The notes under the pieces were generated by a model, which was not told the origin of the DNA, did not search any database, and was given only the letters and a program-made list of their open reading frames with translations. Both the position numbers and the translations under genes were made by a program. This document shows, piece after piece, positions 5,804 to 13,217 of a DNA stretch of 64,000 bases; within the stretch, counting starts at the first letter, position 1; every line of letters starts with the position of its first letter. Source of the DNA: Candidatus Woykebacteria bacterium (GTDB lineage: Bacteria; Patescibacteriota; Microgenomatia; Woykebacterales; RBG-16-39-9b); NCBI GenBank assembly GCA_040876265.1, contig JBBDPN010000001.1, positions 118,208 to 182,207 on the forward strand. Direction: 5' to 3'.

Positions 5804-5863
5804 TCTATCTGCTTCTTTGACACCTGCGTTTGCAACCCCGTAAAATAAATCCTAAAGGGTTAT

Positions 5864-7141
5864 ATGTTGGAAAAACTAAAATCACACTCGTTTAGGCAGG
5901 ATATTTATCTTTTCTTAACCTTTATTCTTTTTGCCTCTATTGTTATTACGGTAGATAGCCTCTCGACGCTTCGGAACACACAGACCCAAGCTACCCACAC
6001 AATTGAAACTTTACTCTTTGATGATTTCAATTCCTCCTCTTTGAATACAACTTTGTGGGGAAGCGCAGTTACGAGGAGTAATTCTCATGTTCAGATTAGT
6101 AACGGCACCGTGAGAATAAAGGTTGACAACCTGCCGGATACATATGCGCAGCTTTATTCCAAAAAGAGTTTTCCTGTAGGTTCCACTTTCGAAACCAGGA
6201 TAAACGTTACCGGGGGGCAATCATACGATCACAAAACTATTGGTTTCTCCAATTCTAGAGCGGGTAGTGATTGTAGCAATGGGGAAACAGAAGCGGTGGT
6301 GTGGAGAGGTGGGGATAAGGACAAACGCGTCCTAGCTGAAAGCGGGGGTAGTGTTACTTGCCCCATTATACAATCATCTTACCCCGCTGGTTGGCGAACG
6401 ATAAAAATTGTTAGAGTAAGCAGTAGTGAAGCTAGGATTTATGAGGACGGTGTGCTACTAAAAACTTTTAATTCCAATATTCCTACGGGGAATTTACCTG
6501 TTCGAATTAGCGGTTATACTCACGAGACAAGCTGGCCTTCAACAGAAATTTGGATGTACGTGGATTGGGTCAAAGTGACCAAACCAAAAGCTCACTCGAC
6601 CGCACCGCCGCCGTCCCTACCAAAAAGCAGTAAAGGTACCAGCAGTGGTGGATCTTCACCTCCTGCAGCACAACCAAGTCCCACAGATGCTACAAAAACT
6701 TCTTCGAGCAAAAATATTCTGAATTCGCTGAACTTAAAAATTTCTATCCCTTATTTGCTGGGTAAAATAAATTTACCAATTAAATTCTCCAAAGTCTCGA
6801 AGAGCTTGGAAGTTTTACCAGGAAGAGTAGAGTATAGTGTTAATGTGAGAGGGGATGAAATACTGCTGGGCAAGGTCTATACACTTACCGTTGGGGGAGG
6901 TAAGGTTTTAAGTAAGAAAGTTAGATTCAACGCGAAAGCACCGAAAATGAAAGTAAATGTTGGCAGCCTTATTCTAGGTGATGTCAACTCAGATTCGGTG
7001 ATCAATAATGGGGATGATGACCTATTTGTGGATTTTCTGGTTGGTCAAAGTGTAGATGGCGATGTAAATGCCGATGGTGCTACCAATTCACTGGACTGGG
7101 CGATAATTCTTAAGAATTTTGATAAAATAGGAGACAGATGA
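5864..7141 (+). CDS. secreted protein with a ConA-like lectin/glucanase-like domain, a Pro/Ser-rich linker and a C-terminal dockerin-like domain
   Basis: Signal/TM anchor at the N-terminus. The C-terminus carries two dockerin-like Ca-binding repeats (GDVNSDSVINNGDDDLFVDFLVGQ; DGDVNADGATNSLDWAIILKNF). A PSLPKSS...SSPPAAQPSPTD linker lies between the domains. Confidence 0.6.
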   Translation: MLEKLKSHSFRQDIYLFLTFILFASIVITVDSLSTLRNTQTQATHTIETLLFDDFNSSSLNTTLWGSAVTRSNSHVQISNGTVRIKVDNLPDTYAQLYSKKSFPVGSTFETRINVTGGQSYDHKTIGFSNSRAGSDCSNGETEAVVWRGGDKDKRVLAESGGSVTCPIIQSSYPAGWRTIKIVRVSSSEARIYEDGVLLKTFNSNIPTGNLPVRISGYTHETSWPSTEIWMYVDWVKVTKPKAHSTAPPPSLPKSSKGTSSGGSSPPAAQPSPTDATKTSSSKNILNSLNLKISIPYLLGKINLPIKFSKVSKSLEVLPGRVEYSVNVRGDEILLGKVYTLTVGGGKVLSKKVRFNAKAPKMKVNVGSLILGDVNSDSVINNGDDDLFVDFLVGQSVDGDVNADGATNSLDWAIILKNFDKIGDR

Positions 7142-7827
7142 CAATTACAAAACTGCTCATTACCTCCGGGTTAATTATTTTCTCAACCACTTCTTTTAGT
7201 CAAGTTGCTCTCGCCCAGGAAAAAAATTCCGAAATCATACTTTATCCAAGCTATCGGGAGGTCCGAGTTGGGGAGAATTTCAAAATTGATGTGTTGGCCA
7301 AATCTGATGCGCCTCTAATTGGAGGAGATGTAAAGATAAGTTTTGACCCGCGGGTGATTGAGGTCGTTTCTATCGACACCGGTCAGGCTTTTGATAGCGT
7401 ACCTTTGAAAAAGGTGGAAGAAGGGAAGATTACTATCACTGCCATTAACGAGCGTGAGGGAAATCTATTCAGTGGTGTGGGTAGGGTGGTTACTTTGAAT
7501 TTGAAAACAATTGATGCTGGGGATACTAGTCTGAAAGTTGATTTTGATCCAGGAGCTTCAACCGATTCAAATTTAACTAGCGCCGAAGTTTCCGATACTT
7601 TAGCAAAGGTGGATAGCTCAACGTATATTGTTGGCGGCCCGTTGGAGAGAGCAGTTGGATCAGCTAAAAGATTTGTTATGGCGGTAGCTCCGCTCTTTAT
7701 TTTCTTAATTTTCGCAGGAATAGTTGCTTACGTAGGTTTTAGGTGGTGGAAGTACCGAGAGCAGCAACCAAAAGACGTCTTTATTCCTAGAAAAGTCCCG
7801 TTGGACAAGCCCCCAGAGGCGTCTTAA
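7138..7827 (+). CDS. cohesin-domain protein with a C-terminal transmembrane anchor
   Basis: Cohesin-like beta-sandwich signature (VRVGENFKIDVLAKSD...GGDVKISFDPRVIEVVSI; TLNLKTIDAGDTSLKVDFD). C-terminal TM helix (APLFIFLIFAGIVAYVGF) with a basic tail. Its ATGA start overlaps the stop of the dockerin gene. Confidence 0.6.
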   Translation: MTITKLLITSGLIIFSTTSFSQVALAQEKNSEIILYPSYREVRVGENFKIDVLAKSDAPLIGGDVKISFDPRVIEVVSIDTGQAFDSVPLKKVEEGKITITAINEREGNLFSGVGRVVTLNLKTIDAGDTSLKVDFDPGASTDSNLTSAEVSDTLAKVDSSTYIVGGPLERAVGSAKRFVMAVAPLFIFLIFAGIVAYVGFRWWKYREQQPKDVFIPRKVPLDKPPEAS

Positions 7828-9980: not shown

Positions 9981-10670
9981 ATGGACAATCTGCCGTCTGC
10001 CCCGGAGGGTACTGAGCCACAAATAGAAGAAGATCACACTTCCGCCGAAACTCCTGTGGAAAGAGAACCGTCCAAGCCTTCTCCAGATGATTACGAGAAA
10101 GAGATGCTTAAAAATATAAATAGCGCCTTTGAGCAGGATGGTGCTGGTACGGAAGCGCATCGAGAAGAGGCTCGGCAGGAAGGGGTAGAAAAGGCAAAGG
10201 AATTACTGAGACCAGAAGAAGCATTAGATCCGACGCAGCCTGTTCCGGGGCGACCAATTCAATCCCAAGCTGATAGGTCTGAGGGTGAGGTAAACGAAGT
10301 AAGAGCAGGGGAGGCGGCAGTACCAGAAATATCGGTAAGAGAGGTGCAGCCATTACCTCCTCGACCAATAGAGAAGCAACCGCCTGTGTTAGCTGAAGAA
10401 GTAATGGAAAGACCACCGTCGCCATCTGTAGATGAGATGCCTGTCGGTCCACCTAGCCCCACCGAACCTCAGCAAGTGGAAATTTCGCAGGACGTACCTT
10501 CACAGATCCAGGAGAGACCACTGCCAGTTGTTGAACCCGCTCCTTCAAGATCAGACCCTTCTCCAGGGAGAGTACCAGCTGCAAAAAGACCAGATTTGGG
10601 TTTGGGTGATTCAGCGCCAACCATGTATAAGGAAAGACAAGAATTAAGGGCCGCGGCTGGCCAAAAGTAA
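9981..10670 (+). CDS. hypothetical Pro/Glu-rich low-complexity protein
   Basis: No TM helix and no catalytic motifs. Highly acidic and proline-rich. Lies directly upstream of the ATPase. Confidence 0.4.
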   Translation: MDNLPSAPEGTEPQIEEDHTSAETPVEREPSKPSPDDYEKEMLKNINSAFEQDGAGTEAHREEARQEGVEKAKELLRPEEALDPTQPVPGRPIQSQADRSEGEVNEVRAGEAAVPEISVREVQPLPPRPIEKQPPVLAEEVMERPPSPSVDEMPVGPPSPTEPQQVEISQDVPSQIQERPLPVVEPAPSRSDPSPGRVPAAKRPDLGLGDSAPTMYKERQELRAAAGQK

Positions 10671-10673
10671 TAT

Positions 10674-13217
10674 ATGCAACTATTAATTACTATCGTCACT
10701 GTATTTTTCTTTTTTATCTTCTTTTTTATTCTCATCATTGCTCTGGCGATGCTGCTTCGTTTTCGGAACCGAAAAGAAAAATCACTCGAATACACTCAAC
10801 TTGAAGTTAAACTCCCTCGGAACAACGAAATAAAAATAGAGTCAACTGAAAGTTTTTTCACCTCGCTTTACAGTTTGTTTCGGCATGGTGTTCAGGGGTT
10901 TTTATCAGGTCAGGAGCATATCGGTTTTGAGATAGTATCTCAAGGAGGAGTAATAAAATTTTTTGTTACTGCGCCAAATCCACTGCTTTCCTTGGTCGAA
11001 AAGCAAATACATTCTTTTTACCCGGAAGCAGAAATTAATTCGGTGGAGGAATACAACATTTTTCAGCCCGGTCTCTATGTTGATCTGGTCGAACTTTCTT
11101 TACGCTCCCCAGCCTTCCGACCGATAATTCGCTACAACCAATTGAAGGAAGTCGAGACGATGAACGCGATTACGACCGCGATGAGTAAGCTCGATAGTGA
11201 AGAAGCGATGGCGTTACAAATACTTATTTCTCCGGCTGGAATTGGGTGGCAGGGTGCTGGTTTTTCCCAGATACACAAGGCGCAAACAGTTGAGAAAAAG
11301 GGAATAATGACGCCATTTAATTTACCTCCCTCCTACCAACAGCAGCAAGAGGCTCCACCGCAACCGGAAGCGAGAACCGAAAGTATTACTCAGGAACCTT
11401 ACAAAAAAATTGAGGAAAAAGTCTCTAAGCCTGGATTTGAGACGGTAATACGAATTGTGGTTTCAGCGAAAAATAAGCTGACCGCTCTCGCCTACATAGA
11501 AAACATGGTTGGGGCTTTTGGTCAATTTAATGATCCGACCGCCAATGGTTTCAGAAAACGTCGGTTTCCCTGGACTCTCACGAAAGTTCTTTCCTTGCGC
11601 CAATTTATTTATAAAATGATGCCTTTTTGGTTTGGTAAAATGATTTTAAACTCAGAAGAACTAGCAACCATATTTCATTTTCCAAACAAAAACGTGGTAA
11701 CACCAAATATTGATTGGCTGCTTTACAAAAAGGCAGCCGCTCCAAACGTAGTGCCAAAAGAAGGGCTTTATCTTGGAAAAAGCATATTCCGAGGTGTAGA
11801 AACAAAAATCTATATTCAGCCAGATGATCGCCGGCGCCACATGTATATTATTGGGCAAACCGGTACCGGGAAGAGCGAATTTATGAAAATTATGGCGGTC
11901 CAGGATATAAAAGAGGGTAAAGGGGTTTGCTTTATAGATCCTCACGGAGGTGCGATTGAGGATATTTTGTTACAAATTCCACCGGAGCGGGCCGAAGATG
12001 TAATTCTTTTCGACGCTGGTGATACCGAAAGACCTCTTGGGATAAATATTCTAGAAACTCGGACTGAAGAGGGGAAACACCAAATGGTAAACCATTTCAT
12101 CCACCTTCTTTACAAACTTTATGACCCAAAGCGCACCGGTATCATGGGTCCGCGACTCGAGCGAGCAATCCGAAATGTGATGCTCACGGCAATGAGTGAG
12201 CCAGGTAGTACCTTGGTTGAAGTCCTGCGGCTGCTGATCGATCCTCAGTTTGTGAAAGAAACCCTACCAAAAGTTACCGACCCGTTAGTTCGTCGCTACT
12301 GGACTGATGAGGTGGCCCAAACCACCACTTTTCACAAAAGTGAAGTAATGGGTTATTTTGTTTCCAAATTTGATCGTTTTGTGACTGAAAAGCTAATGCG
12401 AAATATTATTGGGCAAAGCAAAAGCGCTTTTGATTTTCGGGACGTGATGGATAGTGGCAAAATTCTCCTTGTTGATCTATCAAAAGGAAAAATAGGCGAG
12501 GAAAATTCTAACTTTCTTGGGCTTGTGCTCGTACCGCGTATTTTGGTTGCGGCGATGAGTAGGGTGGATGTGCCCGAAGAGCAGCGACGAGATTTTCACC
12601 TTTACGTGGATGAGTTTCAAAATTTTGCCACTCCTGATTTTGCCCAGATACTTTCAGAGGCCCGAAAATACCATCTGGATTTGACGGTGGCCAATCAATT
12701 TATCGCCCAAATACAGGAGGAGGGAATACGCGAAGCCGTATTTGGTAACGTGGGTACCCTGATTGCTTTTCGGGTTGGCGTGGACGATGCTAAGTATTTG
12801 GAGTTCCAATTTGATCCGGTATTCAAAAAAGAAGATTTGATCAATAACGCTTTAGGGCACGCCTACGTCCGACTGCTTGTCGACGGGCAGCCCTCGTATC
12901 CATTTTCCATGGCGACAGATTGGGAAATGATGCAGGCGGTTACCAGAAACAAAGAAGTCGCCGAATCTATCGTCGAGCTGTCAAGGCTCAAATACGGTCG
13001 CGATCGGCAAATAGTTGAGGCGGAGATAAACCAACGAGCCGGCCTCGACGAGACGCCCACCACCATGCCAGAACCAGCTAAACCAGTTCCACCCCAAGCT
13101 GCCAAATCCGCCCCGACGCAACAACCGTTGCCGCAAGCCCAACCAGTTCAACAACCCACACCAGCCGTTCAAGAAACTTCCCTTCAACAAAACCTCCAAA
13201 AAACCGGAGGCGGGTAA
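10674..13217 (+). CDS. membrane-anchored P-loop ATPase of the FtsK/HerA/VirB4/TrwB (T4SS coupling protein-like) superfamily
   Basis: N-terminal TM helix. Walker A GQTGTGKSEF (compare TrwB GATGTGKS), Walker B HLYVDEFQNF, and EARKYHLDLTVANQ (RKY-type motif of DUF87/VirB4/HerA). Gln/Pro-rich C-terminal tail. Paralog of 34633..37401. Confidence 0.7.
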   Translation: MQLLITIVTVFFFFIFFFILIIALAMLLRFRNRKEKSLEYTQLEVKLPRNNEIKIESTESFFTSLYSLFRHGVQGFLSGQEHIGFEIVSQGGVIKFFVTAPNPLLSLVEKQIHSFYPEAEINSVEEYNIFQPGLYVDLVELSLRSPAFRPIIRYNQLKEVETMNAITTAMSKLDSEEAMALQILISPAGIGWQGAGFSQIHKAQTVEKKGIMTPFNLPPSYQQQQEAPPQPEARTESITQEPYKKIEEKVSKPGFETVIRIVVSAKNKLTALAYIENMVGAFGQFNDPTANGFRKRRFPWTLTKVLSLRQFIYKMMPFWFGKMILNSEELATIFHFPNKNVVTPNIDWLLYKKAAAPNVVPKEGLYLGKSIFRGVETKIYIQPDDRRRHMYIIGQTGTGKSEFMKIMAVQDIKEGKGVCFIDPHGGAIEDILLQIPPERAEDVILFDAGDTERPLGINILETRTEEGKHQMVNHFIHLLYKLYDPKRTGIMGPRLERAIRNVMLTAMSEPGSTLVEVLRLLIDPQFVKETLPKVTDPLVRRYWTDEVAQTTTFHKSEVMGYFVSKFDRFVTEKLMRNIIGQSKSAFDFRDVMDSGKILLVDLSKGKIGEENSNFLGLVLVPRILVAAMSRVDVPEEQRRDFHLYVDEFQNFATPDFAQILSEARKYHLDLTVANQFIAQIQEEGIREAVFGNVGTLIAFRVGVDDAKYLEFQFDPVFKKEDLINNALGHAYVRLLVDGQPSYPFSMATDWEMMQAVTRNKEVAESIVELSRLKYGRDRQIVEAEINQRAGLDETPTTMPEPAKPVPPQAAKSAPTQQPLPQAQPVQQPTPAVQETSLQQNLQKTGGG

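Follow-up and report, generated by a model that had tools for sequence, protein, structure and literature searches.

A dockerin-tailed lectin-like protein and a membrane-anchored cohesin encoded side by side in Candidatus Woykebacteria: a probable cell-surface display pair

Two overlapping genes of Candidatus Woykebacteria, one ending in a dockerin-like tail and the other encoding a cohesin with a transmembrane (TM) helix, raise the question of whether their products dock onto each other at the cell surface and what such a device would do in a lineage of tiny genomes. The DNA analysed (hereafter the window) is a 64-kb stretch of a metagenome-assembled genome (MAG) of this member of the Candidate Phyla Radiation (CPR). 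A first-pass annotation of the window had proposed two adjacent genes joined by an ATGA overlap, and both open reading frames (ORFs) lie exactly where it had placed them. Gene 1 (5864-7141, + strand) encodes a protein of 425 amino acids made up of a leader, a ConA-like head, a linker, a beta module and a dockerin, and gene 2 (7138-7827, + strand) encodes a type I membrane protein of 229 amino acids with an extracellular cohesin. The ATGA at 7138-7141 is common to the stop of gene 1 and the start of gene 2. Together with a Shine-Dalgarno sequence, AGGAG, located at 7129-7133 within the final dockerin codons and 4 nt before the gene 2 start, it forms a translational-coupling junction (7129-7141, + strand). 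Both products are 100% identical to Candidatus Woykebacteria entries at NCBI from the same 532-kb contig of a MAG, annotated as "hypothetical protein" (gene 1) and "cohesin domain-containing protein" (gene 2). In our assessment the locus is probably a two-gene operon for non-cellulosomal cell-surface display, in which the membrane cohesin receives the dockerin of gene 1 and a stalk presents a lectin-like head.

The nature of the gene 2 product was established by sequence and fold comparison. It scores 32.7 bits with the Pfam family Cohesin (PF00963), whose gathering score is 24.1 (E = 1e-7, residues 42-147), and contains the KISFDPRVIEVVSID cohesin signature; 14 of its 17 homologues have a precomputed match to the same family. 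The AlphaFold2 (AF2) model obtained with an alignment of 17 homologues (predicted local distance difference test, pLDDT, 75.6) has the elongated 9-stranded beta-sandwich jelly roll of cohesins. Comparison of this model with the PDB by Foldseek returned cohesins for all of the top 29 matches (best E = 7e-8, target-normalised TM-score up to 0.75), spanning the cellulosomal types I, II and III and the non-cellulosomal cohesins of Archaeoglobus fulgidus and Clostridium perfringens. This confirms the cohesin-like beta sandwich that had been proposed for this gene, which occupies residues 30-165 (7225-7632, + strand; PF00963 and Foldseek). Within it, the segments LKxxDAGDT (122-130) and DSN (143-145) form a patch that is invariant in the 17 homologues.

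The C-terminal TM helix previously ascribed to gene 2 was also found, at residues 179-201 (7672-7740, + strand), with a Kyte-Doolittle value of 2.74 and lying inside an AF2 helix of residues 168-209. It is directly followed by R-W-W-K, in agreement with the positive-inside rule. At the other end, residues 1-26 (7138-7215, + strand; AF2 helix 2-26) form a signal peptide with the motif A-L-A/Q, kept at this position in the 17 homologues, at which cleavage is predicted. The signal peptide, the hydrophobic helix and the basic residues after it indicate a type I membrane topology for the gene 2 product, the cohesin facing outward. The remaining 28 residues (202-229; 7741-7824, + strand) constitute a cytoplasmic tail that the first-pass annotation had not mentioned. 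This tail (peptide YRWWK...VFIPRKVPLDKPP) contains the motif VFIPxxVPLDKPP, which in the general form (V/I)F(I/T/V)P, one or two residues, (V/I)PLD(K/R/Q)(P/A)P is present in 17/17 homologues and in the most divergent locus found (L028), and it is conserved to the same degree as the cohesin. Neither a known motif nor a partner could be identified for the tail, which has no recognisable signalling domain. Anchoring scaffoldins are recognised by an SLH module or an LPXTG motif; neither is present in the sequence or the Pfam matches of gene 2, which has the TM helix and the cytoplasmic tail instead. A sortase or other C-terminal sorting signal was ruled out, since the conserved motif lies C-terminal to the TM helix and not before it.

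The partner domain was sought at the end of gene 1, where two dockerin-type calcium-binding repeats had been noted. Residues 367-425 (6962-7138, + strand) contain two EF-hand-like Ca loops, each followed by a helix, and both loops are canonical 12-residue ones: DVNSDSVINNGD (residues 373-384, nt 6980-7015) and DVNADGATNSLD (residues 400-411, nt 7061-7096). The helices are predicted by AF2 at residues 382-392 and 409-417. The D or N residues expected of a tandem-repeat dockerin at loop positions 1, 3, 5, 9 and 12 are found, and across 52 members of the family the loop positions vary little or not at all. At the family level the dockerin matches are clear. A profile of six orthologous tails matched 28 chains in the PDB, 27 of them dockerins (best 2y3n_B, E = 1.5e-6), and Dockerin_1 is recognised in 24 of 42 tail-sharing relatives (E <= 0.001, best E = 4e-10); the tail of one relative, P0028, scores 24.4 bits, over the dockerin cut-off. 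These results uphold the two repeats. Their conservation is asymmetric: the second loop and helix, N-S-x-D-W-A-I-L-L-x-N-F-G-K-x-G, are near-invariant across the 52 tails, both in cargo genes beside a cohesin gene and in those away from one, and helix 1 is variable. Residue D420 of the window protein is located at the end of the conserved second helix.

Between the linker and the dockerin, gene 1 encodes a further module that the first-pass annotation had left out. This conserved all-beta module of about 85 amino acids (residues 284-366; 6713-6961, + strand) is recognised by its family hidden Markov model (HMM) with E = 1.6e-36, has seven predicted strands (AF2 pLDDT 55-65) and stands always directly N-terminal to the dockerin in the family. 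A profile of 27 members gave nothing significant against Pfam and the PDB, the best match being the CD109 MG domain (E = 0.07). The label "X module" can be given to it only by analogy.

Loci were gathered from both cohesin homologues and tail homologues, yielding 13 distinct TM-cohesin loci of this family, the window included. A gene with the beta module and dockerin is immediately upstream of the TM-cohesin gene in 13/13, and the subset of 8/13 that was found through the cohesin is free of selection bias for the pairing. Eight of the 13 preserve the 4-nt ATGA overlap together with a GGAG sequence. The gene order SAICAR synthetase, HtrA, tail gene, cohesin, PrmC, RF1, L31 is retained even with the most divergent tail (29% identity), and the named source organisms of the family are all Candidatus Woykebacteria. 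A species-level genome scan with the cohesin alignment, which relies on two short peptide patterns, found 2 loci only. The invariable adjacency supports the tail gene and the TM-cohesin gene as a cognate pair. The locus had been called unusual for a reduced genome. With the order HtrA / tail gene / cohesin / PrmC / RF1 / L31 it is instead a core, syntenic feature of the lineage and no peculiarity of a single reduced genome.

How far the tail is shared among different proteins was assessed by an exhaustive HMMER search with its 142 amino acids against 1.84 billion representatives. The search retrieved 89 proteins, and the threshold E <= 1e-10 left 54 cluster representatives. In all 50 proteins with both modules the tail ends 0-2 residues from the C-terminus. 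At least 16 unrelated head classes are represented among the 36 full-length members, whereas 628 of the 630 tail pairs align, with a median identity of 40%. Recognisable heads include CBM96 (3 members), fn3, Big_7, CARDB, a disaggregatase repeat (1 member) and a cohesin, and no match to a catalytic carbohydrate-active enzyme family (glycoside hydrolase, GH) was detected in gene 1 or in 42 tail relatives. The same pattern is visible at the syntenic locus of three species, where identity is 75-77% for HtrA, 66-68% for PrmC, 70-76% for RF1, 56-61% for the cohesin and 45-60% for the tail, and no similarity is detectable between the heads. With flanks, cohesin and tail conserved and the heads dissimilar, the head has been exchanged in place. 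Tandem arrays of tail genes exist as well, as do solitary ones (L007, L009, L013, L015, L016, L019, L021, L022, L029), and on one 279-kb contig 3 tail genes accompany 1 cohesin. These findings speak for more than one cargo per anchor, and further proteins with the tail whose genes lie elsewhere probably dock on the same one. A search of the window found one cohesin and one dockerin, and further ones are present in relatives. The description of the locus as a "minimal" module is therefore valid within the 64 kb but not for the relatives, which have several cargo genes per anchor and in some cases a second tier.

Cargo proteins with unrelated heads also have a common leader, consisting of a hydrophobic helix followed by a basic-x-A-A motif such as IRDxRPxAA (28/37; P0020-P0077), and in a subset an N-terminal INPPY(S/T)G(K/R)DL motif precedes the helix. 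Such conservation exceeds the generic need of a signal peptide and may point to a targeting motif comparable to YSIRK. In the window protein the leader (residues 1-45; 5864-5998, + strand) comprises a basic N-region, a hydrophobic helix at residues 14-32 and then LRNTQTQA/TH, and is modelled as an AF2 helix of residues 10-42. It would be either a Sec signal peptide or a signal anchor, with cleavage predicted from the sequence. Of the family members, 28 of 37 have a basic-x-AA motif 10-15 residues past the leader helix; the window protein has a degenerate form of it. A leader of the pilin-like (class III) kind was ruled out for gene 1, there being no G or A at -1 and no E at +5.

The head of gene 1 (residues 46-241; 5999-6586, + strand) had been described as lectin- or glucanase-like. 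It has no Pfam match at all and no match to a GH family in Pfam or NCBIfam, and its sequence profile gave only a weak GH16 match in the PDB (E = 0.3), so a fold comparison was needed. The AF2 model (pLDDT about 80) is a beta jelly roll of the ConA-like/GH16-like fold, for which Foldseek returned GH16 enzymes, the Rv0315 pseudo-glucanase and the lectin Emp46p as top PDB matches (best E = 3e-10). Neither the head nor its two homologues, P0019 and P0022, contain the GH16 catalytic motif, ExDx(x)E; the conserved GETEA of the head reads GENQA in P0022. The head was for this reason not assigned as a GH16 enzyme. The ConA-like part of the earlier description stands. The absence of the catalytic motif makes lectin-like binding likelier than glucanase activity, and the modelled head is probably a glycan-binding module.

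Relatives of this particular head are few. The full-length gene 1 search, which scored only the top 8000 word-sharing candidates, gave 3 relatives, a result for which the low-complexity linker is suspected, and a head-only search added one. This indicates that the head is rare, and the alignment is too shallow for a better model. The closest relative is P0019, with 46% identity. P0022 (315 amino acids, from a JGI metagenome) has the head at 40% identity, a lipoprotein-like signal and a Cys-rich N-terminal region, and no dockerin; the head module thus occurs also outside the cohesin-dockerin system. The head is connected to the tail by a disordered Pro/Ser/Thr-rich stalk (residues 242-283; 6587-6712, + strand; pLDDT about 30), and poly-Pro linkers are found at the equivalent place in relatives.

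Some relatives encode a second cohesin-dockerin pair type. P0019 has a leader and ConA-like head like those of the window protein, three Ig-like repeats and a canonical dockerin (29.9 bits, over the cut-off), and lacks the beta module. Its gene is directly upstream of that of P0028, at a distance of 50 nt (L008 44-2019), and P0028 is composed of a leader, a different N-terminal cohesin, Ig-like repeats and the C-terminal beta module and dockerin. P0028 has the architecture of an adaptor scaffoldin, and the sequence arrangement of the two genes implies a two-tier assembly. In Woykebacteria GWB1_45_5, four genes of the second cohesin-dockerin type stand ahead of a tail-gene/TM-cohesin pair, and one of the four encodes a second TM-anchored cohesin (L002:3099-4436). 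The whole forms a six-gene cohesin/dockerin cluster (L002 75-6753, MHCN01000008.1). Its first two genes encode a dockerin protein and a protein with a cohesin, three Big_7 domains, fn3 and a dockerin; a 226-amino-acid cohesin and dockerin protein and a cohesin with CarboxypepD_reg and a TM helix come next, and the tail-gene/TM-cohesin pair closes the cluster. A protein of this cluster that combines a cohesin with a dockerin of apparently the same type could polymerise with itself. Because the order of dockerin gene upstream of cohesin gene recurs in this independent pair type, the case for the neighbours as cognate partners is strengthened.

From these data the following mechanism can be proposed. 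The gene 2 product would be exported and lose its signal peptide, the C-terminal helix retaining the protein in the cytoplasmic membrane with its single cohesin near the outer face and its short conserved tail in the cytoplasm. The gene 1 product would be exported through Sec, and its dockerin, buttressed by the beta module, would fold around two Ca2+ ions and plug into the gene 2 cohesin. Docking would occur mainly via the invariant second dockerin repeat and its helix. Given this near-invariant repeat, the variable helix 1 and the invariant cohesin patch, we infer one dominant binding face common to all cargos, unlike the symmetric dual-mode type I dockerins. The Pro/Ser-rich stalk would project the ConA-like head outward, where it would most likely bind, rather than cleave, a glycan on a host cell or substrate. 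The ATGA overlap would couple the synthesis of cargo and anchor. Across the lineage it is the head that is exchanged, with anchor and tail constant. The domain identities, gene pairing, topology signals, multiple cargo genes and head replacement are shown by the data above; secretion and cleavage, the physical binding of the two products, its Ca dependence and the ligand of the head are the parts of this scheme that we infer.

Several observations weigh against this interpretation. The dockerin of the window protein is under the PF00404 gathering score of 22.9, with 14.2 bits for the full protein and 18.2 for the tail alone. The HMM searches called for by the first-pass annotation therefore gave a cohesin over the Pfam cut-off and a dockerin recognised via its family profile, but the single window dockerin remained sub-threshold. 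Structure prediction, the other possible refutation it had named, recovered the cohesin fold of gene 2 and the jelly roll of the head, whereas the confidence for dockerin residues 392-425 is low (pLDDT <50, in a model from an alignment of 5 sequences and without Ca). Overall, the first-pass interpretation withstood these checks and is supported, subject to the corrections made here. Residue D420 (nt 7121-7123) changes NFGK into NFDK at a position where Gly is found in 96% of the 52 members. The cleavage site of gene 1 (TQA/T) is weak, and its N-terminal membrane anchoring may persist. Adjacency and co-conservation are partly explained by common ancestry, and other cohesins outside the 64-kb window may be the true partner of the gene 1 dockerin.

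The last of these points leads to an alternative in which the tail does not dock on the neighbouring cohesin but on something else (another cohesin type of the same genome, a cohesin of host or foreign origin, or the cell wall), or is only a stabilising module that binds Ca, and adjacency reflects co-regulation. The second cohesin type of the relatives, one of them TM-anchored (L002:3099-4436), would mean several partners in the lineage, and many tail genes lie away from any cohesin gene (L007, L009, L013, L015, L021, L022, L029). We nevertheless consider this unlikely, as the tail gene is adjacent and upstream in 13/13 distinct loci, with translational coupling in most of them, and the tail and TM-cohesin are conserved jointly while the heads change. 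In addition, the second dockerin type (P0019, L002), which has no beta module and a different sequence, adjoins the second cohesin type, which suggests two separate cognate pairs and not cross-wiring. The weak cleavage site allows for a different arrangement, namely an uncleaved signal anchor on gene 1, so that both proteins are membrane-embedded and the cohesin-dockerin loop, instead of serving as a passive stalk for display, senses a ligand and signals through the gene 2 tail. The VFIPxxVPLDKPP tail, as conserved as the cohesin in 17/17 homologues and L028, fits such a role, as do cargo leaders conserved past the need of a signal peptide (including the INPPY motif of a subset). However, 28/37 leaders have the basic-x-A-A motif typical of signal-peptidase sites, the gene 2 tail lacks any recognisable signalling domain and the locus has no regulator gene beside it, so that we rate this arrangement as quite unlikely; it would still need the cohesin-dockerin contact and thus modifies the display explanation rather than replacing it.

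It might also be argued that the locus is a mini-cellulosome, with the head as an active GH16-type glucanase that is held on the cell and degrades polysaccharide for uptake. GH16 enzymes are indeed the best structural matches of the head, which also has the weak sequence match to GH16 (E = 0.3), and carbohydrate-related heads occur in the family (CBM96 in 3 members, a disaggregatase repeat in 1). The motif ExDx(x)E is, however, absent from the window protein and both head homologues, gene 1 has no GH match in Pfam or NCBIfam, and the structural matches include the non-catalytic Rv0315 pseudo-glucanase and the lectin Emp46p. Moreover, no glycoside hydrolase family was found among 42 family members and the anchor has one cohesin, unlike a multi-cohesin scaffoldin. 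This makes a mini-cellulosome very improbable. A cellulosome in the strict sense was ruled out, there being one cohesin and one dockerin in the window, no multi-cohesin scaffoldin, and no GH family in gene 1 or the 42 relatives.

The surroundings of the pair in the window are those of housekeeping genes, with an S41 protease, SAICAR synthetase, a carbamoyltransferase and HtrA upstream and PrmC, RF1 and L31 downstream. A consensus scan revealed a promoter-like site at 5817-5846 (+ strand; TTGACA, an 18-nt spacer and TAAAAT, 11/12 matches), which ends 17 nt 5' of the gene 1 start codon. Gene 2 (+) and prmC (-) are convergent and their stop codons share the TTAA at 7824-7827, which leaves no space for a terminator between them. 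Farther downstream (9981-13217), a 229-amino-acid Pro/Glu-rich ORF with no Pfam match is followed by an 847-amino-acid DUF87/HerA-like, TraG-D_C-like ATPase. This pair is syntenic in another locus (L001), where the ATPase has precomputed Pfam matches to DUF8128, DUF87 and TraG-D_C. The cumulative GC skew of the window peaks near 42 kb, where gene orientation changes from mostly + to mostly -, and the lowest GC content (0.349, against about 0.44 elsewhere) was found at 44-46 kb.

Of the known systems, the closest are anchoring cohesins that receive X-module dockerins, among them the arrangement in Ruminococcus flavefaciens. There, ScaE is an envelope-fixed single-cohesin protein that receives the X-module and dockerin tail of ScaB and CttA. 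CttA, a non-enzymatic cellulose-binding protein, is docked directly on ScaE for adhesion, and the genes are in one cluster. The R. flavefaciens cohesins among the best structural matches of gene 2 are those of ScaB and ScaC, not that of ScaE. ScaE is anchored covalently to peptidoglycan by sortase (LPXTG), and SLH and sortase are the anchoring mechanisms listed for scaffoldins in a review (PMC12484212). Gene 2, in contrast, anchors its product by a C-terminal TM helix that continues into the conserved cytoplasmic tail. In addition, the beta module does not detectably resemble known X modules, the pair belongs to a CPR bacterium, and enzymes of a cellulosome were not seen. The type II system of Clostridium thermocellum offers a second parallel, since the CipA X-module dockerin (XDoc) that binds the cell-surface cohesins of SdbA, OlpB and Orf2p (PDB 2b59, 3kcp, 4fl4) is preceded by a beta-sandwich module; the entries 2b59_B, 3kcp_A and 5k39_B were among the PDB matches of the tail profile, and entries of this system also figure among the matches of the gene 2 fold. 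The asymmetric conservation of the dockerin sequences suggests one dominant binding face, as in the single mode of CipA XDoc-SdbA and not the dual mode of type I. Nevertheless, the C. thermocellum anchors use SLH domains (PMC12484212) whereas gene 2 encodes an integral membrane protein, and the cargo there is a multi-cohesin scaffoldin loaded with enzymes, whereas gene 1 supplies only one binding head.

Non-cellulosomal cohesins and dockerins are widespread according to Peer et al. 2009, as cited in PMC10066038. The Woykebacteria genes resemble such modules, which lie outside plant-cell-wall degradation, often in single copy and in organisms without cellulosomes, and the gene 2 fold has structures of this kind (A. 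fulgidus 2xdh; C. perfringens 2jh2, 2vo8) among its top matches. The surveys by Peer and colleagues are said to catalogue scattered modules, mostly without known partners. Here, by comparison, there is a cognate pair defined by invariant adjacency, with a constant tail, many exchangeable heads and a TM anchor. The amylosome of Ruminococcus bromii also uses cohesins and dockerins for a role other than cellulose degradation, with cell-attached and adaptor components, but its cargo consists of GH13 amylases (PMC4611034) and the window protein has no detectable catalytic domain. Full-text searches turned up no account of cohesin-dockerin systems from CPR, Patescibacteria or Woykebacteria. The gene pair is composed of members of the cohesin and dockerin families that would work like an anchoring cohesin/X-dockerin pair, with a new anchoring mode and exchangeable heads whose repertoire extends across the lineage.

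Little is known about the attachment of CPR bacteria to hosts or substrates beyond type IV pili (PMC6744442), and the locus offers a concrete and testable attachment apparatus for them, which combines a single membrane socket and a single conserved plug with many exchangeable heads. Cohesin-dockerin research gains a naturally defined cognate pair from outside the Firmicutes, recognised by its invariant gene adjacency, a third anchoring mode for cohesins (an integral membrane helix, as against SLH or sortase) and a dockerin-fused beta module of no known family. The pair is small (modules of roughly 140 amino acids) and could serve as an orthogonal protein-assembly tag. A bolder reading takes together the membrane-integral cohesin with its cytoplasmic motif, the constant tail, the cohesin-bearing adaptors and the head repertoire; in it, Woykebacteria would own a two-tier cohesin-dockerin system with cassette-exchanged heads as the main, rapidly diversifying apparatus by which these presumed episymbionts attach to a host or substrate, and the cytoplasmic tail might convey occupancy to the inside of the cell. 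We put this forward tentatively, as an idea that is rather doubtful at present. Constant ends with swapped heads are a pattern reminiscent of polymorphic surface-protein systems, and the locus looks like the lineage's own display system for changeable surface binding proteins.

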